Part shown: one piece after another, positions 3,140 through 42,994 of the stretch
Layout: each line of letters starts with the position of its first letter
How positions within the stretch are numbered: the stretch's first letter is position 1
Assembly (NCBI GenBank): GCA_030646805.1
Contig: JAUSKZ010000034.1
Location: 1-43,613 of the forward strand
DNA: 43,613 nucleotides
DNA from: Candidatus Daviesbacteria bacterium
GTDB taxonomy: Bacteria > Patescibacteriota > Microgenomatia > Daviesbacterales > UBA10151
Direction of reading: 5' to 3'
The notes under the pieces: model-generated
What the model was told of the DNA's origin: nothing
Databases searched by the model: none
The model's input: only the letters and a program-made list of their open reading frames with translations
Position numbers and translations under genes: made by a program

Positions 3140-3154
3140 GCCCGAGGGAGATTC

Positions 3155-4228
3155 ATGATTAATAAACAACGGTTAGTAGAAACTTTTCTTAAGCTTGTTC
3201 AGATTGACAGTCCTTCAGGGGATGAGGAGTTAGTTTCTCAGGAATTAACCAGAAGATTAAAAGTCTTAGGTGGGAAAGTTGAACCTGATAGTTATGGCAA
3301 TATAATCTGTCATTTCAAAGGACAAGGTGAAAGCTTATTACTCAATGCTCATATGGATACTGTGGAGCCGGGCAGAGGGATCAATCCATCTATTAAAAAG
3401 GATCGGATTATCTCAGACGGAAGAACTATTCTTGGTGCTGATCCCAAAGCTGGGGTAGCTATTATTTTGGAAGCCTTAACCTCTCTCAAAGAAGATCAGA
3501 AATCTTCAGTACCTGTGGAAGTAGTGTTTACCCGAGAGGAGGAATCTACCTTAGGTGGAGCGATGAGTTTGGATTATAAAAAGATTCGATCAAAACATGG
3601 GATTATCTTTGATGGCGACGAGGGGGTTCATCGGATCTTTGTCTCGTCACCTTGGTATCTAAGTGTGTTGATTGAGGTAACAGGTCGTGCTTCTCACGCT
3701 GCCGAACCGGAAAAAGGTTTATCAGCTATTGAAATTGGAGCAAAAATTATTGCTCAACTGGAGCTGGGACGGAGTGATTTTGAAACCACTGGCACTGTTG
3801 GTCTGGTGAAAGGTGGAAGTGCCGTCAATGCTGTAGCTGAATTGATGGAGATTAAAGCTGAGTTGCGCAGTAGAGATAAAAAGAAGCTTTTAAAGGAAGC
3901 GAAAAAAGTTGAAAAGGTAGTTTTACAGTTAGCCAAACAATATCCTGAAGCGAAAATTAAACTGAAAATGCAAGAGGAATTTCAGGGTTTTAAGTTGCCA
4001 CCGACTCATCCAGCTATCCAAAGAGCAACGGCTGCTTTGAAGGCTATGTCATTGGAGCCACAACTAATTGATACCAATGGTGGCTCAGATGCCAATATCT
4101 TTCATAAGCACGGTATCGAGGTAGTAGTGGTGGGTACGGGGGCTGCCAATGGTCACACTACTCGAGAATATGTAGTCATTGATCAGATGGTAGAAGCCGC
4201 ACATTTCTGCGAAAAACTGTTACAATAA
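3155..4228 (+). CDS. M20 family metallopeptidase (PepT/ArgE/DapE-like)
   Basis: [12 protein letters not shown]...[13 protein letters not shown] metal-binding motif, [12 protein letters not shown] (catalytic/metal Glu-Glu), and a C-terminal GGSDAN...GHT block. GGGAGA SD-like sequence 5 nt upstream. Confidence 0.8.
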
Positions 4229-5301: not shown

Positions 5302-5310
5302 TTCCCAGTT

Positions 5311-7155
5311 GTGGCACAAGGCACCAAAAAAAAATTAACCCCAAATAAAATCATTGAGACTTTAAAGAGTGTTGGTACTTACGCCTTAATTGGTTTAGTA
5401 GCTCTATTTTTCTTTGTTAATCTTTCCGGCGACCCAACTCCTCAAGATGAAATTCCCCTCTCTCAGCTCATAAACGAGATCAAGCAGGAAAAAATAGCCA
5501 AAGTTATCGTTGATGGGGAAAAGCTGCTTATTTCTTATAAAGAGGAGGATAAAAAAGCTGTCAGCCGTAAAGAAGCGGCTGAATCGATCTTCCAAATCTT
5601 AAAATCTTCCGATGTTGATCCTAAATCTGTCACTATTGAGGTTAAGGATAACTCTTTAACCCAAGCTTTGTATGGAGTTTTGGGCTCAATCTTGCCGCTA
5701 TTACTTTTAGCTGGATTGATGTTTTTTGTGCTTAGGCACGCCAAGGATGCCGGCCAAGGAATCTTTTCTTTTGGTCAATCCAGAGCCAAAATTTTTACCA
5801 AAGACGCACCCCAGATTAAATTTGCTGATGTGGCTGGAGTTGAGGAGGCTAAAAAAGAGCTCTCGGAGATAGTTGAGTTTTTAAAGACTCCCGAGAAATT
5901 TACGGCCCTTGGTGCCAGAACTCCTAAAGGGGTGCTTTTAGTGGGGCCAGCAGGAACTGGAAAAACCCTCTTATCAAGGGCGGTAGCCGGTGAAGCTGGA
6001 GTTCCTTTTTTCTCAATTGCCGGATCTGAGTTTATGGAGATGTTGGTAGGAGTGGGAGCAGCCCGGGTCAGGGATATGTTTGGAACCGCCAAAAAGAGTG
6101 CTCCATCGATCATTTTTATCGATGAGATAGAATCGATCGGCCGGGCTCGAGGGATGGGGGGAATGGGTGGAGGTCATGACGAAAGGGAGCAGACCTTAAA
6201 CCAGATCTTGGTTGAGATGGATGGATTTGCCCCGAATGATCATGTCATAGTTATTGGAGCTACAAATCGCCCAGATATGCTTGATGCGGCTTTGGTCAGG
6301 CCCGGTAGATTTGACCGAAGAGTGACCTTAGGTTTGCCAGATTTAAATGAAAGAAAAGCCATTATTTCAATTCATATGAAGGGGAAGCCGATAACCCCAG
6401 ATGTCGATTTGGAGAAGCTGGCGAGAAGAACTGTGGGTTTTTCTGGGGCCGATATCGCCAACATGTTAAATGAAGCAGCCATTTTGGCAGCCCGAGAGGA
6501 TAAAAAAGCTATTGATCCCAAAGACTTTGAGGAGGCGGCGACCAAAGTAAAGATGGGTCCCCAAAGAAAACGGATGTCAACCGATGAAGACCGGAAACTG
6601 GCGGCCTATCATGAAGCTGGCCACGCCGTCGTGGGGCATTTCCTAAAAAATGTTGATCCTTTGCACCGGGTAACAATTGTGGCTCGGGCTGAGTCTGGGG
6701 GGCATACCCAATTTACCCCTCTTCAGGACAGATCTAATGAGTCAAAGTCCAGGCTAATGGATCAGATAACTATGGCCTTGGGAGCTCAGGCTGCAGAGAA
6801 GATGTTTTTAGATGATATCTCAACCGGGGCAGCTGCAGACTTGAGTGTCGCCACCCGAATCGCTCGAGCGATGGTGACTGAGTATGGAATGTCGGACTTG
6901 GGTCCAATTGCGGTCGGTCCGCGCAGCATCTTTGGTTCCTGGATGAGAATGGGGGAGGGAGAAGATCAAGTTTCAGAACAACTTCAAAGTAAGATCGATC
7001 TGGAGATTAAAAAAATCCTGGATTTAGGCTATAAGAAAGCCAGTGAGATCCTCAAAATTCATAAAAAAGAGCTTCAGGCAGTCACTAAGGCACTTCTGGA
7101 AACAGAAACCTTGGAGTCTGAAGAGTTTGAAAAAATTGTCGGCAAGAAAAAATAA
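5311..7155 (+). CDS. ftsH: ATP-dependent zinc metalloprotease FtsH
   Basis: N-terminal TM segments, AAA+ Walker A GPAGTGKT, Walker [12 protein letters not shown] region, and zinc motif HEAGHA. GTG start. Confidence 0.95.
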
Positions 7156-16857: not shown

Positions 16858-17559
16858 ATGAACAATTTCAGCCAGTTTATCTTTAAAATTTTAAAAAGTG
16901 ATACTCTGATCCCAATTATTTTAATCATAACCTATCTGATATTTGTTATCGTGGCCCGGGGAACTCTACCTCCTCCAGAGGAACTTCTTAAAACTTTTGC
17001 CAGATTTTATGAGCAGTATGGTTATGAGATTATCTTTGTAAGCGCCCTGCTTGAGAGTTTAATCTTGATAAATTTACTGGTTCCGGGAACAGTTGCCCTC
17101 GGAATGGGAGCAGTTTTTGCAAGTACCGGTCAAGTTGAGCTAACTCTGGTAATTTTAACAGCTTTTGCTGGAGCAATTTTAGGATACGCAATTGATTACC
17201 TACTAGGCTATTTGGGGATAGGGGAGATCTTAGATAAGGTTGGTCAAAGGCAGATTTTGGTTCTGGCTAAGAAACAGTTAAAGGTTTTGGGGACTCGGGG
17301 TTTAATTTTAGGATTTATTAGTCCCAACGTTGGAGCTTACTTATCACTGGCCGCCGGAGCTTTGAAACTAAGCTTAAAAGAGTTTCTCCCGATTGCCTTA
17401 ATTTCCAGTCTAGTTTGGCTAACTCTTTGGGGTTTACTTTTCTACTTTGTGGGTGAGGCAATATTGACCATAGTTATAAAATATTGGCTAGGGGTCTTTG
17501 TTGTAGTTTTTGGGGGCATGATCTTAGTTAAATTTTGGAATAGACAGGAGAGTGACTAA
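16858..17559 (+). CDS. DedA/VTT-domain family membrane protein
   Basis: LLESLILINLLVPGTV and the following glycine-rich TM helices are typical of DedA (SNARE-associated) proteins. Confidence 0.8.
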   Translation: MNNFSQFIFKILKSDTLIPIILIITYLIFVIVARGTLPPPEELLKTFARFYEQYGYEIIFVSALLESLILINLLVPGTVALGMGAVFASTGQVELTLVILTAFAGAILGYAIDYLLGYLGIGEILDKVGQRQILVLAKKQLKVLGTRGLILGFISPNVGAYLSLAAGALKLSLKEFLPIALISSLVWLTLWGLLFYFVGEAILTIVIKYWLGVFVVVFGGMILVKFWNRQESD

Positions 17560-18635
17560 TGTTTGTCCCTAAATATACCATCACCAATAAAACCTTAAAA
17601 AATATTGGGGTGATTGACGCCTCGCGGGAGGTAATTTTAAACGCCCCGTTAATTCCGGCTTGGGAAGCTAAATTTAGAAGAGAGGCCCTGGAGAGAACGG
17701 TTCACCACGGAACTCACCTTGAAGGAAATCAATTATCTTTTGAACAAGCTCAGGAAGTTTTGGATGGCAGGACAGTTACGGCTCGAGAGAGGGATATTCA
17801 AGAGGTAATTAACCTTCGGAACGTCTTAAAGTTTATTGACTCCATCTTCGATAAAATTGGTTCTGGTAAATCCTATATTTTAACCCTGGACACGATTTTT
17901 GAAATTCACCGGATAACCATGGAGAAGCTTTTAGGAGAGGGACAAACTGGCAAAGTTAGAGGGCGCCAGGTAGTAATTAGAAATACTCAAACTGGACAAA
18001 TTACTTATACCCCTCCTCCGGCGGTTGAAGTTCCGTTTTTAATGGAAGATTTGATTAATTGGGTTAACTCTGAATCCTCTTCAGATTTCCATCCAGTAAT
18101 CAAAGCCGCTATCATCCATTATGAGGTTGCCAGAATCCACCCTTTTGTTGATGGAAACGGCCGGGTAGCCCGGGCCTTGGCCACGCTAATCCTATTTTTA
18201 GAAGGCTATGATATTAAAAAGTTCTTTTCACTTGAGGAGTATTTTGACGCTGATCAGATGAATTATTACTTAACTTTACAGGCAATCTCCAATCAATTGG
18301 TTTTAGATAACCACGAGCGGGACTTAACACCTTGGTTGGATTATTTTGTGGAAGGGGTAGCGATTGAGTTAAATAGAATTAAAGAACGGGTCAGGCGAAT
18401 CTCGGTGGATTCCCGGGTTAAAGATAAATTAGGATCACAGCTGACCTTAAATGAGAGGCAGATGATGATTATGGAGTACTTACACCGCAATAAAGAGATG
18501 CGCAATAAAGATTTTAGAAAAATCTTTCCAGATCACTCCGACGATACGGTATTACGGGAGATAAGGTTTTTAAAACAAAAGGGACTGGTTAAAAAAACTG
18601 GTGGGACTAAAAATGCAGTCTATGTTTTACGCTAG
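17559..18635 (+). CDS. Fic family protein with C-terminal winged-helix-like region
   Basis: Canonical Fic motif HPFVDGNGRVARAL. N-terminal THLEGN resembles the cis inhibitory-helix motif. Start overlaps the dedA stop (TAATG). Confidence 0.9.
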   Translation: MFVPKYTITNKTLKNIGVIDASREVILNAPLIPAWEAKFRREALERTVHHGTHLEGNQLSFEQAQEVLDGRTVTARERDIQEVINLRNVLKFIDSIFDKIGSGKSYILTLDTIFEIHRITMEKLLGEGQTGKVRGRQVVIRNTQTGQITYTPPPAVEVPFLMEDLINWVNSESSSDFHPVIKAAIIHYEVARIHPFVDGNGRVARALATLILFLEGYDIKKFFSLEEYFDADQMNYYLTLQAISNQLVLDNHERDLTPWLDYFVEGVAIELNRIKERVRRISVDSRVKDKLGSQLTLNERQMMIMEYLHRNKEMRNKDFRKIFPDHSDDTVLREIRFLKQKGLVKKTGGTKNAVYVLR

Positions 18636-19097: not shown

Positions 19098-20861
19098 ATG
19101 AGATTTTCAAAATTAGCTGAATATTTAGAGAAGTTGGAAGCCACCCCCTCCAGGCTATCTTTAATTAATATTTTATCCGAGTTGTTTTTAGTGGTAGAAG
19201 AAAAAGAGATCGCCAAGGTGGTTTATTTGATTTCCGGCCGGGTGGCCCCTTTTTATCTGCCAATCGAGATGGGGATGGCGGAGAAAAATATCGCGGCCTC
19301 CATAGCCCGGGCATATGGGGTAGAGCGTGAAGAAGTTTTAAGAAGATATGGTCAGGTAGGGGATTTAGGTAAAGTGGCAGAGGAGTTGAGTTCAAAGTTA
19401 AAAATTCAAAGTTCAAAATTGGAAGTCAGTGATGTATTTAATACTTTGCTGGAGATCGCGAAATCAACCGGAGAGGGAACGGTGGAGAAAAAAGTCTCAG
19501 CTTTATCAGGTTTGCTCATAAAGGTTGATCCAATCTCGGTCAAACATTTAGTTAGGATTCCCCTGGGGACCTCTAGGCTGGGGATTGGAGACCCAACTAT
19601 TTTAGACGGTTTTGCCCAAAGTAAACTCGGGGACCGTAAAAACCGCAAAGTCTTAGAGGGTGCTTACAATAAAACCTCAGATCTAGGATTAATCGGTGAG
19701 ACTTTATGGCGGGAGGGTCAAAAAGGGGTTGAGAAGCTAGATGTTACGGTTGGTAGGCCGATCAGGTCGCAGCTGGCTGAAAGGTTGCCGGACCCTAAAA
19801 CAATCTTGGAAAAATTTGCGGGAGTAGCTCACGTTCAATTTAAATATGACGGCTTTAGAGTCCAAATTCACAAGCAAGGCAAAACAGTCAGGTTGTTTTC
19901 CCGGAATTTAGAGGAGACAACCTTGATGTTTCCGGAGTTAATCGAAGGGACGTTGAATCAGATTAAAGCCAACGAGGTAATTTTAGATTCGGAAGCCCTG
20001 GCTTTTAATCCGGAATCGGAGGAGTTTTTACCCTTTCAAGAAACCACTAAAAGAAGGAGGAAGTATGGGATAGAGGAGATGCAAAAAAAGCTGCCTCTTA
20101 AAGCCTTTGTTTTTGACATTATGTATTTAGATGGTAAGTCCTTAATTAATACACCTCTTAAAACTCGGATGGAGTTGTTAAAGAAGACCATCGCCGGGGA
20201 CGAGATCCTCAAGATCGAAGATCGCAAGGATGTAATCCTTATCCCTCAACCTGGTGAAATTACTGACTCCGTGGAGAGAGTGGACTTGCTGTTTAATGAT
20301 GCTTTATCAAAAGGTTTGGAAGGGTTGATTGTCAAACGGCCGGACTCAGTTTATGAGGCTGGAGCCAGAAACTTTAATTGGGTAAAGCTCAAGAGGCACT
20401 CCTCAGGCGAGCTCCAGGATACTATCGATTGTGTAATTTTGGGATACGTTTTTGGCCGAGGCAAAAGAGCTGATTTTGGTGCCGGAGCTTTATTGGTCGG
20501 TGTTTACGATCAGGAAAAAGATGAATTCGTGACGGTTTCCAAGATTGGGACGGGGTTAACTGATGAAGAGTGGCGGGAGATTCACAAAAGGGCTGATAAA
20601 ATAAAAGTTGATAAAAAACCAGCTCGGGTTAACTCAATTTTGGAGCCCTCTGTTTGGGTTAAGCCTGAGATTGTGATTGAGGTCTTGGCAGATGAGATCA
20701 CCAGGTCCCCAGTTCATACAGCTGGGAAAAGCGAGACTGAGCCTGGCTATGCCTTGCGATTTCCCAGGTTAGTCAGATTTAGAGAAGGGGATAAGCGACC
20801 GGAAGATAGTACTACAGTAGATGAGCTTGTTAAACTATTTGGACAGCAGTTTAAAAAATAA
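19098..20861 (+). CDS. lig: ATP-dependent DNA ligase, three-domain archaeal/eukaryotic Lig1-like
   Basis: Adenylation motif I KYDGFRVQIH, SRNLEE, LDSEALAF, EGLIVK, NWVKLK. An N-terminal ~230-aa DNA-binding-domain-sized region and a C-terminal OB region. 587 aa. Confidence 0.92.
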   Translation: MRFSKLAEYLEKLEATPSRLSLINILSELFLVVEEKEIAKVVYLISGRVAPFYLPIEMGMAEKNIAASIARAYGVEREEVLRRYGQVGDLGKVAEELSSKLKIQSSKLEVSDVFNTLLEIAKSTGEGTVEKKVSALSGLLIKVDPISVKHLVRIPLGTSRLGIGDPTILDGFAQSKLGDRKNRKVLEGAYNKTSDLGLIGETLWREGQKGVEKLDVTVGRPIRSQLAERLPDPKTILEKFAGVAHVQFKYDGFRVQIHKQGKTVRLFSRNLEETTLMFPELIEGTLNQIKANEVILDSEALAFNPESEEFLPFQETTKRRRKYGIEEMQKKLPLKAFVFDIMYLDGKSLINTPLKTRMELLKKTIAGDEILKIEDRKDVILIPQPGEITDSVERVDLLFNDALSKGLEGLIVKRPDSVYEAGARNFNWVKLKRHSSGELQDTIDCVILGYVFGRGKRADFGAGALLVGVYDQEKDEFVTVSKIGTGLTDEEWREIHKRADKIKVDKKPARVNSILEPSVWVKPEIVIEVLADEITRSPVHTAGKSETEPGYALRFPRLVRFREGDKRPEDSTTVDELVKLFGQQFKK

Positions 20862-33029: not shown

Positions 33030-34952
33030 TTAACGATTCGTGTAGACATCGCCACCGGTTGTCTTAAGTTTAGGCCGGAGGGTCGGGGTGATAATTAGGC
33101 TACTACAGGTGGCGCTGACGCCGGGAATTGCGACATCAGCACTTAAGTTGATAGTGGCGCCTTTACTCGTAGCTGTATCTTCATCACGGTAGGTATGGGT
33201 CACATTTTGAGCACTGCTGGTAATGCCATCAAAACTCCAAGCATAGTCATAGATGACCTCAGGTCCGCCAACTCCGTTTAAATCTCCGCCGGAAGGTTGT
33301 GAGACCCAGGTCATCGGATCACCCCGAATAATCGGCGAAGGAGTGGGGTAGCAAGAGACTCCGAGAGCAGTATAAACATCTATCCCAGTAGCCCCACCTG
33401 CGCCGGTACAAGTCCCGGTGGCAATTTCTCCGAGGGAGTAAACGCTGACGGTGGCCTGCTTGCAGGATTTTGGGGTGGTGTAGGTAACTTGTTTGGGGTT
33501 ATATAAGGAGCTTGGTTGAGGAGCAGGAGTAATCTCATCCCCGCTCCAGTTAGAGGCATAAGAGCCGCTACCACCTTGGGCGGCGGCGGTCCAGGTAGCA
33601 GTTCCGGTTAATCCAGTAACTGTCGGATCGGGAGTGCCGATACAAGACAAAACTTGGGGAGGATCAAAAACTCTAATTTGATCGACAGGTGGTAACCCTG
33701 GAGGAAATCCTTCCGGAGGAGCCGAAGGAGGATCGGCAATTCCGTCCCCATTACTGTCAAATCTACAAGAAGCAACAGGAGTAGTCACTCCTAGGTTGGT
33801 ATTGGAAACAGTAACGGTTTTTGAACCGGTGGAGTTGTAAGTTGTGATATAAGTATCAGTATTATTGGGTGGGGGGGAGTTGGGATCAGTGTTGGCTCCG
33901 GTAGCCTTGTTCCAATTATAGACATAGCTCCCATTGCCCCCGGTAGCCCAGGCTTTATAAGTAAATTCGGTAAATCCAGTGATTCCGAGGTTTGTCCCTG
34001 AACCCGAGGTATAAGTACATCTAACAGTTGGGGGATCATAGACATCAACTGCTGGACAAACGGTAGTTGAGGTGTCGTTAGCTGAGGTTAGTTGAATCGT
34101 GGCAGTTTTACTTACCGGGGTAGTTGAGCCAACTGTGGGATAAGTAACCGATTTGGTACTCGTGGTGTTGGAAGTTGGGCCTACGGACGAGGAAGTCATA
34201 TTAGTCCCACTCCAAGTGTAGGTATAGCTGCCGTTGCCTCCTGCCGCGGTAGCATTCCAATTTCTGCTGACTCCTGAAAAAACTGGCGCGGTGGGCGGGG
34301 TACAACTAACTACTAACTCTCCGTAGATATTGGTATAACAGGTGGCGGTGGCTGTCTCGTTTGGTGAGGTCCGGCTGGCGGTAACCGTCACTGACTTTGA
34401 TGTGGGATTGGCACTAGAGTAACTTTTAGTATAGGTAGAACCACTCCCAAGACCCCCATCCCAGCTATAAGTTACCCCGGTTTTGGAAGCAGTGGCGGTA
34501 TAGGTGACGTCTTTATTTATGACATAAGGATCAGGACTATCGGAACAGGTGATTGAGAGGGGGAAGGCAAAAGGAAAAGTGGTAGTGGCGGTATTACCAA
34601 CGTTATCGGTGCTGGTGGCGACGATTGTATGGTCGGCGTTATCCGAATTAACGCTTCCGGTGTAGGTAAAATTAGTGGTTGAGTTATGAACTGAGGCTCC
34701 ATCTAGAGTAACGACCAGTTGTTTACAACCTGAATTGGCATCGGTACAGGAGGCAGTTAGGGAAACATAACCACTACTACAAATAGCTCCACTAGCCAAA
34801 GCCAATGCCGAGCCTCCACAGGTAGCGGTGACGTTGGCTTCAGGCGGCGCTAAATCTATATCTATAGTGGCTTCAGCAGAGTTAAGCTTAAATACTATCA
34901 AAAATATAAATACCGGAAGGATGAAAAAAACCAGCTTTCTAGGAATATTCAC
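33030..34952 (-). CDS. Thr/Ser-rich cell-surface protein with tandem PKD/Ig-like modules
   Basis: Signal/anchor FFILPVFIFLIVF. About five Cys-bounded modules carry the recurring signature GG(N/S)GSY.Y.W(S/N): GGNGSYTYTWSG, GGNGSYVYNWNK, GGSGSYASNWSG, plus variants VTYSWDGG and YDYAWSFDG. Confidence 0.7.
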   Translation of the reverse strand: MNIPRKLVFFILPVFIFLIVFKLNSAEATIDIDLAPPEANVTATCGGSALALASGAICSSGYVSLTASCTDANSGCKQLVVTLDGASVHNSTTNFTYTGSVNSDNADHTIVATSTDNVGNTATTTFPFAFPLSITCSDSPDPYVINKDVTYTATASKTGVTYSWDGGLGSGSTYTKSYSSANPTSKSVTVTASRTSPNETATATCYTNIYGELVVSCTPPTAPVFSGVSRNWNATAAGGNGSYTYTWSGTNMTSSSVGPTSNTTSTKSVTYPTVGSTTPVSKTATIQLTSANDTSTTVCPAVDVYDPPTVRCTYTSGSGTNLGITGFTEFTYKAWATGGNGSYVYNWNKATGANTDPNSPPPNNTDTYITTYNSTGSKTVTVSNTNLGVTTPVASCRFDSNGDGIADPPSAPPEGFPPGLPPVDQIRVFDPPQVLSCIGTPDPTVTGLTGTATWTAAAQGGSGSYASNWSGDEITPAPQPSSLYNPKQVTYTTPKSCKQATVSVYSLGEIATGTCTGAGGATGIDVYTALGVSCYPTPSPIIRGDPMTWVSQPSGGDLNGVGGPEVIYDYAWSFDGITSSAQNVTHTYRDEDTATSKGATINLSADVAIPGVSATCSSLIITPTLRPKLKTTGGDVYTNR

Positions 34953-36680: not shown

Positions 36681-36776
36681 ATGCTGAAGAAATCCCAAGA
36701 AAAACTAGTTTTTGTTACTAGGAACTTAAATAAGGTTGATGATGCTCAAAAATTAATGCCGAGGAACACTTGTTAA
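36681..36776 (+). pseudogene. possible 31-aa remnant of a HAM1/RdgB-type NTP pyrophosphatase N-terminus
   Basis: MLKKSQEKLVFVTRNLNKVDDAQKLM resembles the family N-terminus (k-i-v-f-a-T-G-N-x-x-K-x-x-E). It terminates where the convergent aminotransferase gene ends. Weak. Confidence 0.25.
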
Positions 36777-38053
36777 ATGGCCTCCTGAATACTTTTATTT
36801 AACATTGATATTGCTTCCTCGAATTCATCGACGCTCATAAAAAAACTTGGAGATAATTTAATGTAATCACCTTTAATGCCAGCTGTTTGAATTATAAGAT
36901 GATTATCAAAAGCTTTTTCTCTAACTTTTTGAGCCAAGCCCTTATTTTTTTGAGGGTCTTGGTTATCATAACCAAGTTTGAATCTTAAAGCCATCCCATT
37001 TCCATCAATACTACTTACTACTGGAAAATGGCCTAATTTATTTAGAATATGAAGCATTATATCTCCATTTGATTTGACAGTTTTCTCTAAACTTATTTTT
37101 TGAGCATATTCCAATGTTCGATTAGCAATATATATACCAAATAAATTGCCGGAGAATGTAGAGTCAAATCCTGGCGCGGATAAATCTATTGACTCAAAAA
37201 AATTTTGAGTAGCGATTAGCGCACCTAAAGGGTAATATCCCCCAGCTAAAGATTTGCCCACTAAAACTATGTCCGGTTGTAATTGTGACTGTGTATGATT
37301 GTAGAAAGTTCCAGTTCTATATACAGCGGTTTGAATCTCATCACAAATTGAGACAACCCTATACCTATTTATTAGAGATATTAAATCTTTTAAGAACCCA
37401 TCTGGAGGTGAGATAAAACCAGCTGCTCCCTGTATAGGTTCAAATATGACAGCTGCAGTATCTTCTTGGTGTGACCTTAGATAATCATCTAGGGATGATA
37501 ATGCAGAACTTGCATCAAGTTTAGATTGGGTTGACTTGCGATCAGGGAAAGGAAAAGATATAGACTCTCCTGGTAATGGTTTAAATTGTTTTTTATTAAC
37601 AAAATGTTCATCAGTAGATAGCATAGCTCCAAAACTATATCCATGAAAGCCACCTTTAAAGGAAATAATTCCTGATTTTTTTGTATGTGCACGAGCTAAT
37701 TTAACTGCCGCATCGACTGTTTTAGAACCGCCAATTGGATAGTAGACAAGCCTATTAGGGCCAGGCTCTAAATAAGTAATAAGCTGACGATCTAAGTGGT
37801 CTCTAGAAGTAGAAGTAAACGCAACGACGTTATCATATAACGATGCTGCCTCAATAACAAAATTCTGAATATTTGGATTCGCGTGTCCAAAGTTTGCAGA
37901 ACTATACCCCATTATCAAATCAATGTAAGGCTTACTATCATCTTCGAACCAAACCTTATGTCCACTTGCTAAAGCTACCCTTTTGTGAGGGTCATAGTTG
38001 GCTGTTTCCTCAATAGGATTATGCGTAAGTTCCGTCTCTGGCCTTTTAAGCAT
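36773..38053 (-). CDS. class III PLP-dependent aminotransferase
   Basis: GGSKTVDAAVKLAR, FHGYSFGA, ICDEIQTAVYRTG, and the Schiff-base lysine context VLVGKSLAGGYYPLGA. Confidence 0.9.
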   Translation of the reverse strand: MLKRPETELTHNPIEETANYDPHKRVALASGHKVWFEDDSKPYIDLIMGYSSANFGHANPNIQNFVIEAASLYDNVVAFTSTSRDHLDRQLITYLEPGPNRLVYYPIGGSKTVDAAVKLARAHTKKSGIISFKGGFHGYSFGAMLSTDEHFVNKKQFKPLPGESISFPFPDRKSTQSKLDASSALSSLDDYLRSHQEDTAAVIFEPIQGAAGFISPPDGFLKDLISLINRYRVVSICDEIQTAVYRTGTFYNHTQSQLQPDIVLVGKSLAGGYYPLGALIATQNFFESIDLSAPGFDSTFSGNLFGIYIANRTLEYAQKISLEKTVKSNGDIMLHILNKLGHFPVVSSIDGNGMALRFKLGYDNQDPQKNKGLAQKVREKAFDNHLIIQTAGIKGDYIKLSPSFFMSVDEFEEAISMLNKSIQEAI

Positions 38054-38141
38054 AGCTTTAGTTACTTACAAATATCGTATAGTATAGCACTCAGATAATC
38101 ATATCTAGATTTGTAAAATTAAAGTTAGTTACATTTTTGTC

Positions 38142-38147
38142 TATAAT
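38142..38147 (+). promoter_or_regulatory. TATAAT -10 box for the ATP-grasp operon
   Basis: Consensus hexamer 7 nt before ATG 38155. No good -35 seen. Confidence 0.45.
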
Positions 38148-38154
38148 CTCAACA

Positions 38155-39159
38155 ATGGAAATTTTAATTCTTTTTAATATTGCTAAAGAGCTCAAAAAAG
38201 GCAAGCCATCTGATTTGGACTGTGAACAAGAGATAGGTATAATTGTTCCCCTTGTAAGTGAAATACTCAGGGGTAAAGGTTATCAAGTTAGCACCTTAGA
38301 AACGACCTATGATCTATGGGAGGATTTAAAACTATATAAAAAGAGAACAGACTTAGTATTAAATCTGGCAGAAGGGTTTGGAGGCACCAATGCAAATGAA
38401 CCACTAGTTCCGGCAATGCTAGAAGCTCTAGAGATCCCTTTTACAGGCGCCTCTTCTCGCAACATGCACTTTACTATGGATAAAGAGAAAACAAAATTAG
38501 TTCTCGCAAGTCACGGAGTTCCTGTGGCACCCCATCAGTTAGTTAGAAGTGATAAAGAGGTGATAAGAGATGATCTAAGATTTCCTTTGATTGTTAAGCC
38601 CGTAAGAGAGGAGGCAAGTGTTGGAGTTTATGCAGATAATGTTGTTTCATCTCAGGAGGACTTAGATAGGAAGGTTAGGGAAAGTTTGAGTTTATATAGT
38701 CAACCTGCATTAGTCGAGAAATTTATTACAGGAAGAGAGATCTCTGTAGGTATAGTTGGTAATGTTCCTAGTCTGCATATATTTCCTCCCTTAGAGTTTT
38801 TATTTATAGGTGCAAAATCGCCTCTAGAGAAAATAAGATCTTACGAATATAAGTGGGGAGGTAAAAAAGAACAGATGGTAAAAGCAGAATTACCTGAGAT
38901 ACTTGTTAATCAACTCAAAAGATACACAGAGATAGCATTCAGGGAAACTGATTGTAGAGACTATGCAAGGATGGATTTTAGACTAGATAAGAATGATAAT
39001 CCCTACTTATTAGAAGTGAACTACAATCCGGGAATAGGTCCTAATACTCATGGTTTAAATAATACCTTAACAAGGATGGCTAGTTTTGAAGGTTTTGGGT
39101 TTGAGGATTTTATTGAATCAATAGTCCAATCTGCTGCCAGAAGATATGGCTTACTCTGA
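38155..39159 (+). CDS. D-Ala-D-Ala ligase-like ATP-grasp ligase
   Basis: LEALEIPFTGASS, FPLIVKPVREEASVGV, EKFITGREISVGIVGN, ARMDFRLDKNDNPYLLEVNYNPGI. I prefer the ATG at 38155 because TATAAT (38142-38147) overlaps the listed TTG at 38137. Confidence 0.85.
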   Translation: MEILILFNIAKELKKGKPSDLDCEQEIGIIVPLVSEILRGKGYQVSTLETTYDLWEDLKLYKKRTDLVLNLAEGFGGTNANEPLVPAMLEALEIPFTGASSRNMHFTMDKEKTKLVLASHGVPVAPHQLVRSDKEVIRDDLRFPLIVKPVREEASVGVYADNVVSSQEDLDRKVRESLSLYSQPALVEKFITGREISVGIVGNVPSLHIFPPLEFLFIGAKSPLEKIRSYEYKWGGKKEQMVKAELPEILVNQLKRYTEIAFRETDCRDYARMDFRLDKNDNPYLLEVNYNPGIGPNTHGLNNTLTRMASFEGFGFEDFIESIVQSAARRYGLL

Positions 39160-40486
39160 AAGATACAAGACGCTTATTGTGGCTAATACTGCTGAAGCTT
39201 TTTCAGGGCCGATAAGCTGTATTGCCAATACCAAACAGCGGGAAGATAGAATCCGAATAGAGAATATTTTATCTCAAAGAGCTATATTCTGGGAGGAAGA
39301 CAATAAAGTAGTCATCACTCCTCAATCAATACCGCAAGGGTTATTTGAGTATAATCGAAGAGTTCTAGGGTTAAAGAACACTCTTAATATCTCTCCTGAA
39401 TATCAAAGTCATAGCTTAAGCCAAAACATCCTCAATGACAAAGTATTGTTAAGAAATCTTAGTGATCTAATCCGTTCAAATCCAGGCATTCGGGTTACAG
39501 CGTATGCTTATACCAGAGAACTGAGAGATTTAATTAACTATTTAAGGAAACAAGAACTTGAATTCATTACTACTGAAGAACCGCAAAGTAATCTAGATTT
39601 AGTTTTGTATTTAGACTCTAAGTCTGGATTTAGATCTGTGCTGACTAATTTAGAAGGGGTAATGTTGCCTGAAGGATCAATATGTCAGGATGAGGAATCA
39701 ACAATTAAAAAAGCTGAGAAGTTTTTAAGAGACGGTAAATCATGCGTAATTAAGGCAAATACGGGAGAATCCGGCTGGGGTTTATTAATACTTAAGAAAG
39801 ACGATCCTTTGGTCGAAAAAGATGTCAAAGGCTTAGCTCGATCAGAGTTTAGGAATGATGGTATTTGGAACAGTAGACCATTCGTAGTGGAAGAATATAT
39901 TGATATTGATACAGCTATAGGTGGTGGCTCACCATCAACAGAACTGTTTATTTCTGATACTAATATAAAATTCGGGTATCATTGCGGTCAACTTTTTGGA
40001 AAAGAAGGCGAATTTAGTGGAATAATTATGGGTAAAGATGTCCTAGACAAATACATTACAAAAGAGATGACGAAGATGTCTCTGCTAATTGCAAAAAAAT
40101 ATCAGCAACTTGGTTATAGAGGATTTTTTGATATTGACTTTGCAGTTTCGAGAAGTGGTTTAATTTATGTACTCGAAACAAATACAAGAAGAACAGGTGG
40201 TACTCATATTTTTGATCTAGCCAAAAGAATTTTACAAGATAAATGGAAAGATTATACGATCTTGTCAAATGATTCATTTCGGTACGGAAAAGAAAAATCT
40301 CAGCCTGAGTTTATACTTCGACACATGGAGCCTTTTCTGTATTCTTTAGATAAAAGAGAAGGGGGCGTCGTCGTTACTCTTGTAGATAATATAGAACCGA
40401 TTATGGGTTATGCTATTCTAGCAAGATCCCAATCTGAGGCCGAAACAATCCAAAATGCTTTATTCGACTCATTTCCCCTCAAATAG
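39146..40486 (+). CDS. second ATP-grasp superfamily ligase with long N-terminal (pre-ATP-grasp-like) region
   Basis: CVIKANTGESGWGLLIL (ATP-grasp Lys strand), FVVEEYIDID, GFFDIDFAVSRSGLIYVLETNTRRTGGTH (E-x-N metal/ATP motif). 14-nt overlap with the upstream ligase gene. Confidence 0.7.
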   Translation: MAYSERYKTLIVANTAEAFSGPISCIANTKQREDRIRIENILSQRAIFWEEDNKVVITPQSIPQGLFEYNRRVLGLKNTLNISPEYQSHSLSQNILNDKVLLRNLSDLIRSNPGIRVTAYAYTRELRDLINYLRKQELEFITTEEPQSNLDLVLYLDSKSGFRSVLTNLEGVMLPEGSICQDEESTIKKAEKFLRDGKSCVIKANTGESGWGLLILKKDDPLVEKDVKGLARSEFRNDGIWNSRPFVVEEYIDIDTAIGGGSPSTELFISDTNIKFGYHCGQLFGKEGEFSGIIMGKDVLDKYITKEMTKMSLLIAKKYQQLGYRGFFDIDFAVSRSGLIYVLETNTRRTGGTHIFDLAKRILQDKWKDYTILSNDSFRYGKEKSQPEFILRHMEPFLYSLDKREGGVVVTLVDNIEPIMGYAILARSQSEAETIQNALFDSFPLK

Positions 40487-40526
40487 TATAATACTTGAGA
40501 TAATTTAAAATTTTGGAATTTTAAAA

Positions 40527-41039
40527 ATGGATAATAAAATTATGTTAGATATAAAACCTTTTCAGGAGACCCTTCATACAGGATATTGTGGTCCTGCCAG
40601 CCTCAAAATAGCCCTTTCTTATTATAATGTTGAAAAAGAGGAGAAAGAGTTAGCTGAGCTTTGCAATGTTTCAAAGGAGTTGGGTACAAATGATAAATCA
40701 TTAAAAAAGGCTGCAGAGGAGTTAGGGTTTAAAGTAGAGATCCAAAACTTTTGCGAATATAGTGACCTTGAAAGATGGCTTAGAAAAGGTGTGCCAGTAA
40801 TAGTTGATTGGTTTACCAGAGGCAGATCAGACTATAGTGATTCTGAGGTGGCTGATGGTCATTACTCGGTTGTTATAGGAATTGATGAAAAAAATATCTA
40901 TTTACAGGATCCTGAAATAGGGAGAACGCGAGCCATAAATAGAAAAGATTTTATGAGAGTCTGGTTCGATTTTGCTGGTGAGTGTATTGAATCCTGGAAT
41001 AAAATGATTATTAGACAGCTGATTGCTATTTATAAGTAA
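40527..41039 (+). CDS. stand-alone peptidase C39-like (papain-fold) cysteine peptidase
   Basis: Catalytic Cys context HTGYCGPASLKIALSYY. His context DGHYSVVIGID followed by YLQDP. 170 aa, with no ABC transporter fusion. Confidence 0.75.
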   Translation: MDNKIMLDIKPFQETLHTGYCGPASLKIALSYYNVEKEEKELAELCNVSKELGTNDKSLKKAAEELGFKVEIQNFCEYSDLERWLRKGVPVIVDWFTRGRSDYSDSEVADGHYSVVIGIDEKNIYLQDPEIGRTRAINRKDFMRVWFDFAGECIESWNKMIIRQLIAIYK

Positions 41040-41059
41040 GGAGGTTAAGCGCTGTCTTT

Positions 41060-42004
41060 ATGAATGAAAAAGTCACCCCTTATCTAAGGGATCTTGCTTT
41101 AAATAATCCTGCAATACAGCTTCAGTTTCATAGAAGCCCAGAAGAAGACGCGCTAAAAAGGTTTCAACTTGAGGACCCTTTAGAAGAGGATAAAAATGAG
41201 GTTGTAAAAGGATTAGTCCATAAGTATTCAAATAGAGCGTTAATAAAAGTCTCCCTTCGTTGTGCAGCCCATTGTCGATTTTGTACCCGCTACAGACAGA
41301 TAGGTTCAGCAGAGGGCGATTTAGAAGAGACAGATATTGATAATATGGCCACTTATCTTTCAAGTAACCCACAAATAGATGATGTCATCTTGTCAGGCGG
41401 AGATCCTTTGTATGCTCCAAAAACAACAATCAATATTCTTAAAAAGATAAGAGATATAAGTTCAATTAAAGTTTTTAGAGTTGGGACTAGATTACCGGTA
41501 CACAATCCTAGCTCCTTTGAATCCCCGCTTTTAAAAAGGACGGTTAATTTAATCGATGAGATTGGAGAAAAAAAACCTTTCTTTATGCTTATTAATTTTC
41601 AACATCCGAATGAACTTACAGAAGAAACTTTAAAAGTTGTTAGATCTCTTAGACGAAGAAATATAACTTTACTTTCTCAAACGGTATTTCTAAAAGGAGT
41701 AAACAATTCTGTAGATAATTTGATGGAACTTTTCCAAGGACTATATCATAACGGAGTAATCCCTTATTATATTTTCCGATGTGATTATGTAAAAGGAGTT
41801 GAACGTTTTGTATGTGACATCAAAGAGGAGCAAGAAATTATGACGCTATTGAGGAGTAGATTAAGTGGTATCGCCTGTCCAACATATGTGGTAGATGTTC
41901 CAGGACATGGTAAAATTCCCGTACCTTTAAGTTATTGGGATAACGTTGATCTAAGCCATTGCAGAGATTTTAAAGGGCAAGAAATTCCTTTAGATTACAG
42001 TTAG
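41060..42004 (+). CDS. KamA/EpmB family radical-SAM amino acid 2,3-aminomutase
   Basis: CAAHCRFCTRY (CxxxCxxC), LSGGDPL, and the PLP-lysine context VVDVPGHGKIPVP. AAGGAGGT SD at 41039-41046. Confidence 0.9.
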   Translation: MNEKVTPYLRDLALNNPAIQLQFHRSPEEDALKRFQLEDPLEEDKNEVVKGLVHKYSNRALIKVSLRCAAHCRFCTRYRQIGSAEGDLEETDIDNMATYLSSNPQIDDVILSGGDPLYAPKTTINILKKIRDISSIKVFRVGTRLPVHNPSSFESPLLKRTVNLIDEIGEKKPFFMLINFQHPNELTEETLKVVRSLRRRNITLLSQTVFLKGVNNSVDNLMELFQGLYHNGVIPYYIFRCDYVKGVERFVCDIKEEQEIMTLLRSRLSGIACPTYVVDVPGHGKIPVPLSYWDNVDLSHCRDFKGQEIPLDYS

Positions 42005-42144
42005 ACTACAGTTTTTAACAATAGAAAGAATAATCGTTACTCATGGTCTAAACCCTAAAAAATCGCTGTATCATATAGAGGGATTGCCGGATGCTAATGT
42101 TTATAGACAGGTTATAGCTCAGAATAGTATTGGAAGATGATTTT

Positions 42145-42903
42145 ATGAAACTTAGTTTAAAAGGTAATTATGCAGGTAACCCAATAAGGATTAGCATAAG
42201 AAAGTCTCGCAGAAAGACCAATAATGTGGCGTTGTTTATCCATGGCTCTTATGGGCTAAGCGGTGATAAAGGCTCGAAGTCACTAATGTTAGGCAAGCAA
42301 ATCTTGCACGAAGGTTTAGCTCATGTAGCATACTACTCATCATCAAGAGACTGGAATACTTATTTTAAAAAAGAAGACGATGCTTTTTCAAGAGCTTTTT
42401 CTCATAAAACTTTTTATGAAGAATTGGATGACTTATCGGATACTCTGAAATTTTTGATAGCAAATTCTGAATCCTTATTTAGCGCTCAAGAAGACAGATT
42501 CAAAATATATGTAATTGCCAATTCTCTAGGAGGGACTTTGATTAGTATGTTAGCTTCTAAATTTTCACATATTGAAAAAATGGCCCTATGTGGCTCTGGT
42601 TTGGCAGTCCGAGAGGAAGCCCAAAAGAAACCCATCATGTCAACATTTCCTGGCAAAAAAGATATTCTAAAAGAAACGGTCAAATATACTAAAAGTGTTT
42701 TTTTACTACAAGGAAGTAGGGATAGTATTGTTCCGCAAATATTTCAGGATGAGTTATTAGATGGTTTTAAAAACGCAAAAACTAAGAAGAAAGTGGTTGA
42801 AGGTGCTAACCATAATTTCTCGAATATTCACGGTGAAAACAAGGACTTAGCATACAATATCTACTGTAATTCAATACTAGACTATTTAAAGAGTCATGAT
42901 TAA
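42145..42903 (+). CDS. alpha/beta hydrolase fold serine hydrolase
   Basis: Nucleophile elbow VIANSLGG, acid QGSRDSIVP, and His GANHNF in the canonical Ser-Asp-His order. ATG at 42145 preferred over the listed TTG at 42130. Confidence 0.75.
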   Translation: MKLSLKGNYAGNPIRISIRKSRRKTNNVALFIHGSYGLSGDKGSKSLMLGKQILHEGLAHVAYYSSSRDWNTYFKKEDDAFSRAFSHKTFYEELDDLSDTLKFLIANSESLFSAQEDRFKIYVIANSLGGTLISMLASKFSHIEKMALCGSGLAVREEAQKKPIMSTFPGKKDILKETVKYTKSVFLLQGSRDSIVPQIFQDELLDGFKNAKTKKKVVEGANHNFSNIHGENKDLAYNIYCNSILDYLKSHD

Positions 42904-42964: not shown

Positions 42965-42994
42965 TTGACAAGAGGGAGGCTAAAATTATATAAT
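42965..42994 (+). promoter_or_regulatory. consensus TTGACA-N18-TATAAT promoter
   Basis: Both hexamers are perfect. ATG 43016 lies 21 nt downstream. Confidence 0.65.

Follow-up and report, generated by a model that had tools for sequence, protein, structure and literature searches.

Two divergent ATP-grasp ligases and diamino-acid supply genes in an apparently mobile cassette of Patescibacteria: a tentative route to short cationic peptides

The bacteria that form the candidate phyla radiation (CPR, or Patescibacteria) are thought to hold almost no biosynthetic capacity. What, then, is made by a conserved and apparently traded cassette of theirs that encodes two peptide-bond ligases and up to three routes to non-proteinogenic diamino acids, an unexpected capacity in such organisms? 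The question is raised by contig JAUSKZ010000034.1 (assembly GCA_030646805.1) of a Candidatus Daviesbacteria bacterium, analyzed over its whole stretch of 43,613 nucleotides (the window), in which positions 36773-42903 encode (i) a class-III-fold pyridoxal 5′-phosphate (PLP) enzyme, (ii) an ATP-grasp ligase resembling D-alanine–D-alanine ligase (Ddl-like), (iii) a second ATP-grasp ligase, AG2, (iv) a C39-like Cys peptidase, (v) a KamA-type radical S-adenosylmethionine (SAM) 2,3-aminomutase, and (vi) an α/β hydrolase. The answer tentatively preferred here, with confidence a little below even, is a nonribosomal peptide synthetase (NRPS)-independent amide-ligase cassette that assembles a short cationic peptide. 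Its two ligases form the invariant core of a gene set found in 29 loci, and its optional genes point to a supply of diamino acids.

The enzyme types are each known already, and there are precedents for ATP-grasp peptide assembly that an aminomutase supplies. What is undescribed is the combination of a Ddl-like and a PGM1-like ligase with a C39-like peptidase and an interchangeable supply of β-lysine (β-Lys), 2,3-diaminopropionate (Dap), and 2,4-diaminobutyrate (Dab), together with its mobility and its concentration in the CPR. A full-text literature search returned no account of this gene combination, in keeping with an earlier prediction, made from the sequence of the window, that it is not a described pathway; the amidoligase survey of Iyer et al. 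2009 lay outside the reach of that search.

Organization of the Locus

The six open reading frames (ORFs) and their domain calls, as originally predicted, are real according to an ORF check and to Pfam and NCBIfam profile searches. The features of the locus are the following.

36773-38053, minus strand: class-III-fold PLP enzyme, aminotransferase or racemase/epimerase (426 aa; Aminotran_3, 7.7e-66)
38054-38154: divergent intergenic region of 101 bp between the PLP enzyme gene and the ligase operon, with presumed promoters
38155-39159, plus strand: Ddl-like ATP-grasp ligase (334 aa; Dala_Dala_lig_C, 1.6e-27)
38605: approximate putative recombination breakpoint within the Ddl-like gene (nucleotide identity between the window and locus L100)
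39146-40486, plus strand: AG2, predicted PGM1/BesA-like ATP-grasp amide ligase (446 aa; ATPgrasp_ST, 4.8e-8; PreAtp-grasp, 2.1e-5)
40527-41039, plus strand: stand-alone C39-like Cys peptidase (170 aa; Peptidase_C39, 9.6e-15)
41060-42004, plus strand: KamA-family radical-SAM/PLP 2,3-aminomutase (314 aa; Radical_SAM and KamA-family models)
42145-42903, plus strand: α/β hydrolase (252 aa; weak Pfam matches only)

The Ddl-like gene starts at ATG 38155, a start common to its homologues (the longest ORF opens at TTG 38137). The 14-nt overlap of the two ligase genes noticed earlier is present, and an identical −14 spacing occurs in loci L009 and L100. Judging from the genes, the two ATP-grasp ligases, which are of different lineages and keep their catalytic residues, would be translationally coupled. 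An NCBIfam profile search brought none of the six proteins to an equivalog cutoff, and none appears to be an ordinary member of a named enzyme family. Inspection of the six sequences found no hydrophobic N-termini or transmembrane-like segments, and all six proteins appear cytosolic. Within 38054-38154, a consensus promoter scan stayed at background (30 sites vs 23.8 ± 5.6 expected) and no Rfam family matched; a scan of the window and six loci at gathering thresholds gave tRNAs only and no riboswitch.

A Conserved Gene Set

The AG2-orthologue set comprises 29 non-redundant loci, including the window, with scores above 295 bits and at least 36% identity. The Ddl-like gene is present in 28 of these loci, adjacent to AG2, and the C39-like gene in 24, most absences being contig ends. 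A KamA-like gene is operon-linked in 12/29, a PALP enzyme and an ornithine-cyclodeaminase-family enzyme occur in 10/29 each, and a class-III aminotransferase in 9/29. The genes are tightly packed, with gaps below ~170 bp and overlaps often of 4-14 nt, and their order varies (AG2-C39-Ddl in L010 and L020). The recurrence of this set across related genomes and several phyla bears out the earlier view that the genes are a conserved functional module and not a chance neighbourhood. The two ligases are the invariant core; C39 joins in CPR bacteria, with KamA and the PLP enzyme as optional additions. For the cluster proteins, the nearest homologues are overwhelmingly those of metagenome-assembled genomes of Patescibacteria/CPR.

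A second sample, centred on the C39-like gene, covers 80 metagenome loci and two genomes, with 34 adequately flanked copies. In this sample, the supply genes track the ligases and not C39. KamA accompanies three of six triads (Ddl-like/AG2/C39) vs none of 28 non-triads (Fisher p = 0.003), and SbnB and the aminotransferase give Fisher p values of 2e-5 and 1e-4, respectively.

The identity of the supply genes is clearest in the full cluster of L003. Its PALP enzyme passes the SbnA model TIGR03945 (399.7 vs a cutoff of 349.95), its cyclodeaminase-like enzyme falls slightly short of the SbnB model TIGR03944 (305.7 vs 326.9), and its aminotransferase exceeds the cutoff of the diaminobutyrate-transaminase (DABA transaminase) family model (418 vs 401.6). 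Judged by these profiles, the optional genes would provide diamino acids: SbnA/SbnB L-Dap, the DABA transaminase L-Dab, and KamA β-lysine. The routes combine freely, any combination being found across loci. The β-amino-acid theme of the original prediction stands insofar as KamA is present; the theme of the wider family is diamino acids (β-Lys, Dap, and Dab). The enzymes of a published dabABC Dap/Dab pathway are unrelated to those described here.

A precursor or carrier peptide encoded in cis was considered and rejected, as no conserved small ORF was found in or around the 29 clusters: when ORFs of 20-90 aa were clustered there, only two near-identical contigs shared any. No PP-binding domain occurs among the called neighbours of the loci. 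An anti-phage defence system was likewise rejected, none of the six proteins matching any PADLOC model at E <= 0.01, and the IMG/VR viral collection holds no AG2 relative.

Mosaicism and a Plasmid-Borne Copy

Comparison of the window with L100, its closest relative, reveals uneven divergence. Protein identity is 96% for the PLP enzyme, which occupies the equal divergent position, 87% for the Ddl-like ligase, 52% for AG2, and 73% for C39. Nucleotide identity is 95-100% across 36806-38604, then 73-82%, and 47-75% (mostly 53-69%) across AG2 and C39; both flanks are unrelated. This pattern points to a recent recombination junction inside the Ddl-like coding sequence (window ~38605; L100 ~2455). 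The AG2 and Ddl-like trees are concordant with each other and discordant with taxonomy. They gather every SbnA/B-bearing cluster into one clade and place the window in the other, where KamA is the sole recurrent accessory. One triad, on a 4-kb contig binned to Nanoarchaeota (a weak binning), adjoins a DDE transposase, and tRNA genes flank three clusters in the Rfam scan. Taken from these comparisons, the cassette appears to be a mobile, mosaic, horizontally exchanged accessory element.

Thioflavicoccus mobilis is a cultured, free-living purple sulfur bacterium (a proteobacterium). The conjugative plasmid pTHIMO01 of T. mobilis 8321 (NC_019941.1; L101) carries Dat, SbnA, SbnB, Ddl-like, AG2, and KamA genes at 30-42% identity. 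One strand encodes the DABA transaminase, sbnA (its RefSeq name), an SbnB-like enzyme, and a Ddl-like protein that is 42% identical and has the Trp and loop signatures described below. The other strand encodes an AG2 homologue (31% identical) and a KamA-family gene, and the cluster lies by IS66 elements and a Fic-family gene. The AG2 homologue, 451 aa in length (L101 11165-12520, minus strand; about 5308-6663 of NC_019941.1), is flanked by the KamA-family gene and an unannotated stretch and is absent from the gene table of the plasmid; the listed genes are THIMO_RS17635, RS19430, RS19425, RS19420, and RS17625. This locus indicates that the two ligases and the supply genes work as a unit outside the CPR too, and it allows the question to be tested directly in an organism in culture.

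The Two Ligases

The Ddl-like protein misses both NCBIfam Ddl models, TIGR01205 and PRK01372, with 151.4 vs 243 and 137.8 vs 245.65 bits; its L003 orthologue scores 131.1 and 128.9 bits. Alignment to true Ddl is possible only from about residue 80 on. When the family profile is aligned to 4ZQI and 8EVX, the equivalents of K144, K215, R255, D257, E270, and N272 (DdlB numbering) are invariant. Around the acceptor, Tyr216 of Ddl is replaced throughout the family by an invariant Trp (YKW motif), and the Ser281-Leu282 acceptor-carboxylate region by an invariant loop, NPGIGPNTHGLNNT, that is five residues longer. A weak Pfam match to the tubulin–tyrosine ligase (TTL) family (8.1e-5) was also seen. 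Family identity is 54-72% across CPR lineages and superphyla. These features suggest a non-Ddl paralogue family, and because a plasmid-borne copy occurs in free-living T. mobilis, the gene is most simply seen as an extra paralogue and not the housekeeping ddl. Public sources label the family “D-alanine--D-alanine ligase” or give it no name. Many of its several hundred or more genes are annotated with the former name, which is probably wrong and could distort inferences on cell-wall synthesis in CPR genomes. Ddl-like homologues on rhizobial plasmids were set aside for their different context, the NGR234 copy lying beside a CapA-family gene.

The family profile of AG2 strongly matches only three solved structures: 8YND (9.4e-18), PGM1 (3.3e-12), and BesA (4.2e-9). 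Its AlphaFold2 model has a pLDDT of 92.6 and aligns over the full length in Foldseek with the same three at TM-scores of 0.73-0.79 (8YND, 1e-26; PGM1, TM 0.79; BesA, 2e-23). The next tier consists of LdmS, PurK, and biotin carboxylases at 5e-17 or weaker. The PreAtp-grasp domain (PF18604) scores 25.5 bits against a gathering threshold of 27.5 (E = 2.1e-5), and several homologues carry a precomputed PF18604 match. The family alignment contains 32 invariant residues, including K203, E249, D329, D331, E344, N346, and R348-T353. By its profile and model, AG2 belongs in structure, over its full length, to the amide ligases of the PGM1/8YND/BesA group, with the corresponding activity predicted.

An exhaustive profile search of 1.84 billion proteins returned 353 AG2 representatives at E <= 1e-30. 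AG2-like paralogues line up in arrays of two to four; some arrays include distant Ddl-like genes, and one lies in a locus resembling a biosynthetic gene cluster. Arrays of this kind are typical of stepwise peptide assembly. Three or four paralogues stand together in L007 (6611-13305), accompanied by DegT-type aminotransferases, a HemN-like radical-SAM enzyme, and an AMP-binding enzyme, and in L057 and L059 (about 1.8-9.4 kb), accompanied by a distant Ddl-like gene. All three loci resemble gene clusters for NRPS-independent peptides. The surroundings of distant AG2 paralogues were uninformative and mostly housekeeping synteny (NUDIX, an ATPase like type IV secretion coupling proteins, TsaD).

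The Aminomutase and the PLP Enzyme

The KamA-type protein scores 216.7 bits with AblA, 215.9 with AblA_like_2, 196.8 with TIGR00238, 191.3 with the glutamate model, 185.9 with EpmB, and 178.7 with the arginine model, all below cutoff. The miss is narrow for TIGR00238 (cutoff 199.2), which the L003 protein passes with 205.1, and wide for the equivalog models (EpmB, 185.9 vs 369.3). Structure 2A5H matches at 6.9e-51. The motifs were correctly judged intact: C68xxxC72xxC75, corresponding to C125/C129/C132, and the equivalent of the PLP lysine K337 are present. All KamA copies of the clusters keep the equivalents of R134, D293, D330, and K337; elsewhere, position 330 is Thr in BlsG and Glu in EpmB. 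A neighbour-joining (NJ) tree, built without bootstrap, places the cluster-linked enzymes in their own clade apart from EpmB, AblA, CsLAM, BlsG, and AblA_like_2, with a second clade present in L016 and L023. The aminomutase thus lies outside EpmB, in a clade that is operon-linked to ATP-grasp ligases in 12 loci. From the conserved residues, its substrate is most likely lysine and its product β-lysine. That β-lysine feeds the ATP-grasp ligases is soundly argued because the enzymes have their own clade and lysine-type pocket residues.

A KamA-family gene of another type lies in L098 (1-1384; Sinorhizobium medicae plasmid NZ_CP104150.1). Named “lysine 2,3-aminomutase”, it has Arg and Ser at D293/D330 and directly follows a biotin-carboxylase-like ATP-grasp gene. 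KamA-family genes of this sort are present on dozens of rhizobial plasmids and may belong to another aminomutase-plus-ATP-grasp system with a different substrate.

At this point, the most ordinary account can be judged, namely that the Ddl-like protein is the D-Ala-D-Ala ligase of the genome, that the aminomutase is EpmB acting on elongation factor P (EF-P), and that their adjacency is functionally meaningless. The public name of the Ddl-like family and an efp gene ~6.5 kb from one cluster (L005) speak for it. It is nevertheless hardly credible: (i) the Ddl and EpmB models are all missed and the D-Ala2-site residues replaced, (ii) the aminomutase falls outside the EpmB clade, in which Glu takes the place of D330, (iii) gene order is kept across 29 loci and several phyla, (iv) the free-living T. 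mobilis has an extra copy, which bears the family signatures and lies on a plasmid, and (v) no ORF of at least 100 aa upstream of the cluster (window 1-36497) has an EF-P or EpmA/class-II lysyl-tRNA-synthetase-like Pfam match.

The divergently encoded PLP enzyme contains the PLP-lysine motif GKSLAGG. Its earlier designation as a class-III aminotransferase is right as to the Aminotran_3 fold and the divergent position; its nearest solved relatives are class-III-fold racemases, a broad-specificity amino-acid racemase (9WRF, 5e-48) preceding PuuE (6.5e-41). Linkage to the cluster is evident in L100, and the reaction, as far as the protein sequence suggests, is ambiguous between that of an aminotransferase and that of a racemase/epimerase. 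Identity to the DABA-type transaminases of other clusters, which are encoded after C39, is 26-27%.

The C39-Like Peptidase

The Cys/His peptidase assignment is sound: Q13, C21, H112, and D128 are present and invariant in the C39-like family. The protein matches PF03412 with 55 bits vs a cutoff of 22 (9.6e-15), C39_2 at 5.1e-13, and, weakly, BtrH_N at 8.1e-5. Foldseek places its AlphaFold2 model (pLDDT 85) nearest to the pseudomurein endoisopeptidase PeiR (2.6e-8, TM 0.69); staphopain and the PCAT1/ComA peptidase domains come next, and the papain-like ligase CtaG (7e-5) is more distant.

The C39-like family, with 2,439 clusters, far exceeds the ligase families in size, and its top 120 clusters are at least 62% identical to the window protein. 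Triad and non-triad copies mix in the tree, with a mean identity of 0.65 both within and between the groups and no discriminating column. Non-triad copies neighbour NUDIX genes (21 loci), LD-carboxypeptidase S66 (6), CYTH (6), S51 peptidase (5), HAD, and pyrophosphatase genes; loci with such neighbours include L107, L109, L115, L117, L150, L152, and L156, and the neighbourhood may be a small “hydrolase island”. One non-triad copy directly follows an ABC-2 transporter operon, and L119 has C39 followed by a DABA-type transaminase gene, without ligases. Distant stand-alone C39-like genes, 34-43% identical, also occur in large phage genomes (IMG/VR L185-L196, several above 300 kb). C39 is hence best described as a CPR enzyme that is general, cytosolic, and highly conserved, and which the cassette in most cases carries with it or has as a neighbour.

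C39 enzymes are typically leader peptidases. An account in which AG2 ligates a dipeptide made by the Ddl-like enzyme, or a β-lysyl unit, onto a ribosomal peptide or protein encoded elsewhere, at its N-terminus or a side chain, would give C39 a place of this kind, cleaving a leader to expose the acceptor or removing the tag. The account draws on the PGM1 group to which AG2 belongs, since PGM1 joins a non-proteinogenic acid to the N-terminus of ribosomal peptides (PMC8939145), as well as on the C39 copy behind the ABC-2 operon and the weak TTL-family match. It is quite unlikely, because no conserved small ORF exists in or near the 29 clusters, whose intergenic gaps are below ~170 bp; the C39 protein of the ligase loci stands alone, with no fused or conserved ABC exporter and no GG-leader precursor gene beside it; BesA, equally close to AG2, uses free amino acids; and the recurrent neighbours of C39 elsewhere are small-molecule hydrolases, not precursor peptides. 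A reversible variant, in which the ligases attach a β-lysyl or diamino dipeptide to a protein or envelope polymer encoded elsewhere and C39 removes it, is very doubtful. If true, it would be a prokaryotic analogue of tubulin tyrosination/detyrosination or of ubiquitin-like cycles in host-dependent CPR bacteria.

The ligase-independent occurrence of most C39 genes, near LD-carboxypeptidase, S51 peptidase, and NUDIX/HAD “housekeeping” hydrolases, also invites a salvage scheme. Here C39 would degrade imported or recycled peptides, such as murein-derived isopeptides, and the ligases would re-ligate scarce diamino acids, holding them in a usable or storable form in a host-dependent bacterium. Homologue taxonomy and general knowledge of the CPR suggest that the organisms are auxotrophic symbionts, as salvage would have it. 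The prospects of the scheme are slim: biosynthesis genes for Dap, Dab, and β-Lys beside the ligases point to de novo supply, the T. mobilis version lacks C39 in the 17.8 kb examined, and a patchy, mobile distribution is atypical of core salvage functions.

The match to PeiR, which cuts cell-wall isopeptide bonds, leads to a third account, cell-wall remodelling in the manner of van clusters. The supply enzymes (KamA, SbnA/B, Dat, or a racemase-like PLP enzyme) would produce an unusual, possibly D-, diamino acid, the Ddl-like ligase would build an alternative dipeptide, AG2 would load an amino acid or dipeptide onto a peptidoglycan precursor (stem or cross-bridge), and C39 would act as an (iso)peptidase that removes the normal or the modified peptide. 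Several observations fit. The Ddl catalytic core is kept and the acceptor site altered, a change of the type seen in VanA-type ligases; the PLP enzyme is nearest to amino-acid racemases, recalling VanT; stand-alone C39 copies lie near LD-carboxypeptidase genes; the cassette is mobile, as van clusters are; and diamino acids are classic position-3 and bridge residues of peptidoglycan. Remodelling is nonetheless unlikely. Genes of the mur, fem, and dcw groups are linked in none of the loci examined, the characterized relatives of AG2 are secondary-metabolite ligases and not cell-wall enzymes, all proteins appear cytosolic with no flippase or transpeptidase partner, and one triad is binned (on the weakly binned 4-kb contig) to Nanoarchaeota, a group without murein.

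A Proposed Pathway

The tentatively preferred reading, assembly of a short cationic peptide, can be set out as a sequence of putative steps: (i) the KamA-type enzyme would convert L-lysine to β-lysine, as its conserved pocket residues suggest; (ii) the divergent class-III PLP enzyme might supply or epimerize a second amino substrate, the least supported step; (iii) the Ddl-like ligase, with catalytic residues intact and an acceptor site unlike that of Ddl, would activate a carboxylate as an acyl phosphate and join two amino acids; and (iv) AG2 would form a second amide, extending the dipeptide or attaching it to another amine, its substrates being presumed. The product would be a short, cytosolic, cationic peptide rich in diamino and β-amino acids, possibly isopeptide-linked through side-chain amines. 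Sister clusters would swap in or add L-Dap supply (SbnA/SbnB) and L-Dab supply (DABA transaminase). C39, whose nearest characterized relative is an endoisopeptidase, would hydrolyze or possibly transfer such amide bonds in trimming, turnover, or release. The earlier proposal that the module makes and ligates a β-amino acid survives in the distinct KamA clade, its lysine pocket, and the two ligases; it needs widening in that KamA is optional and the theme is diamino acids.

In favour of this reading are the kept and tightly packed gene order, the tracking of the ligases by the supply genes, the six-gene recurrence in T. mobilis, the fold group and paralogue arrays of AG2, the lysine-type KamA clade, and the isopeptidase match of C39. 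A cytosolic setting with no conserved precursor or carrier ORF would suit free substrates. Several observations weigh against peptide assembly. About 11 of the 29 loci hold the triad without any supply gene; substrates there would be common amino acids or ones made elsewhere in the genome. No exporter/transporter, regulator, or riboswitch is conserved among the loci. The PLP enzyme of the window and the DABA transaminases found in other clusters are of different subfamilies. At ~65-70% identity, the Ddl-like and C39 proteins are unusually conserved for secondary-metabolite enzymes. C39 adjoins the Ddl-like and AG2 genes in only 6 of its 34 adequately flanked copies and is missing from the T. 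mobilis cluster over the 17.8 kb examined; its role may be general and unrelated to the product. Since C39 occurs mostly away from the ligases, the dedicated role in maturation, trimming, or turnover once proposed for peptidase and hydrolase is uncertain for C39, and for the hydrolase, found in no other locus, it falls away.

Should the cassette indeed make a cationic peptide, the product could, in episymbionts, stand in for polyamines, act as an effector directed at the host, or modify the envelope.

Other Features of the Window

The hydrolase, originally taken as part of the operon and system, has no homologue in the other loci: tblastn found none in the 100 collected loci or in the 82 C39-centred loci, and it is absent from L100. 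It scores 27.3 bits with Hydrolase_4 (cutoff 27), matches PDB entries at 2e-3 or weaker and no NCBIfam model, and has a nucleophile elbow A-N-S-L-G with Ser at residue 127. The gene begins 140 bp after KamA (125 bp to an alternative TTG start) with no terminator-like site between the two, in a promoter and terminator scan that was at background overall. It is probably not part of the system; co-transcription with KamA is possible. Just past it, at 42965-42994 (plus strand), lies a perfect sigma-70 consensus (TTGACA, 18 nt, TATAAT; 12/12), downstream of which an ORF from 43028 continues beyond the last position of the window. This promoter consensus probably marks the start of a new transcription unit.

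Elsewhere, the window is housekeeping in character, with Pfam matches to a class-I Trp/Tyr-type tRNA synthetase, FtsH, PolA, Fpg, RecF, an ATP-dependent DNA ligase, Pth, and PMT_2 glycosyltransferases. The DNA ligase (19098-20861, plus strand), a three-domain protein, and a Fic-domain protein (17559-18635, plus strand) lie amid these genes; that a Fic-family gene also flanks the T. mobilis cluster is probably a coincidence. Upstream of the tRNA synthetase, 2087-4228 (plus strand) encodes an S-Me-THD-like (hydantoinase-related) protein and, directly after it, an M20/M28-type peptidase, which may be an amino-acid salvage pair. A Thr/Ser/Pro/Gly-rich repetitive protein of 640 aa (33030-34952, minus strand) has an N-terminal signal- or transmembrane-like segment and no Pfam match, and its gene lies in a stretch of clearly raised GC content (0.47-0.51 vs 0.34-0.43 elsewhere). 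It is probably secreted or surface-located and possibly acquired from elsewhere.

Comparison with Known Systems

The Ddl-like ligase has in common with Ddl, VanA, and VanC its Dala_Dala_lig_C domain as well as the K, R, D, E, and N residues of catalysis, and the cassette resembles van clusters in that a mobile element brings together an altered-acceptor ligase, a peptidase, and an enzyme of substrate supply. Unlike Ddl and Van ligases, it lies below every Ddl and Van cutoff, with Trp at Y216 and the S281 loop replaced. In contrast to van clusters, no linkage of its gene to mur, VanH, or VanX genes occurs, and it is always paired with a second, PGM1-like ligase.

AG2 has the fold, including the pre-ATP-grasp N-domain, of PGM1 (pheganomycin), 8YND (a Streptomyces “ATP-grasp peptide ligase”), and BesA (γ-Glu-propargylglycine ligase). 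These amide ligases form ADP and couple a non-proteinogenic acid with the amine of an amino acid or peptide, and AG2 is likened to them by fold and profile. It differs in being only 16-20% identical and in lacking pheganomycin or Bes partners and a precursor gene; their hosts are Streptomyces, whereas those of AG2 are mostly CPR bacteria and its partner is a Ddl-like ligase. Graspetide and other ATP-grasp systems for peptides that are made on the ribosome and modified after translation (microviridin/RimK-type) differ in that here a Ddl-type and a PGM1-type ligase occur without a conserved small ORF. The CPR graspetide loci of Makarova et al. (PMC8939145) were considered and set aside, as their partner genes differ.

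The KamA-type enzyme keeps the features of the KamA/AblA/EpmB/BlsG/glutamate 2,3-aminomutase family: the CxxxCxxC motif, the PLP lysine, R134, and both Asp residues that grip the lysine ε-ammonium in lysine 2,3-aminomutase. Unlike these enzymes, the clade of the window is separate and short (312-337 aa), most of the C-terminal domain being gone. Unlike in known KamA settings, the cluster genes are not linked to ablB, epmA/efp, or bls genes. In blasticidin S biosynthesis, the β-amino acid made by BlsG goes into amide formation, to which the part of KamA here is likened.

Two further systems pair amide ligases with papain-fold enzymes. In glutathionylspermidine synthetase/amidase (Gsp), and with glutathione plus phytochelatin synthase, ATP-dependent ligases make a small peptide or amide whose bond a papain-like Cys enzyme then hydrolyzes or transpeptidates. 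The likeness is one of function only, with no sequence relationship detected to Gsp, GshA, or phytochelatin synthase. Closthioamide and butirosin biosynthesis combine the ATP-grasp enzymes CtaD/BtrJ with the papain-fold transacylases CtaG/BtrH on β- or γ-amino-acid amides, and a carrier protein is found in 95% of surveyed CtaD-homologue loci (PMC7183216). The pairing of an ATP-grasp with a papain-fold Cys enzyme is the same, and CtaG is among the structural matches of C39; unlike in those systems, no peptidyl carrier protein or PP-binding gene is found here, and C39 is nearer to hydrolytic PeiR and C39 domains than to CtaG.

The implied monomers, β-Lys, Dab, and Dap, recur among those of the natural cationic homo-poly-amino acids (ε-poly-Lys, ε-poly-β-Lys, γ-poly-Dab, β-poly-Dap, and δ-poly-Orn). 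NRPS-like enzymes make these polymers, in which isopeptide bonds run through the side-chain amines, and a lysine 2,3-aminomutase gene beside the synthetase marks the β-Lys polymer (PMC10522769). Their synthetases (Pls) are membrane-bound, with adenylation, carrier, and transmembrane domains, unlike the two soluble ATP-grasp ligases here, for which there is no evidence of polymerization. If the product of the cassette is a cationic (iso)peptide, its ligases would represent an ATP-grasp, NRPS-independent route to a chemistry known so far only from NRPS-like polylysine-type synthetases.

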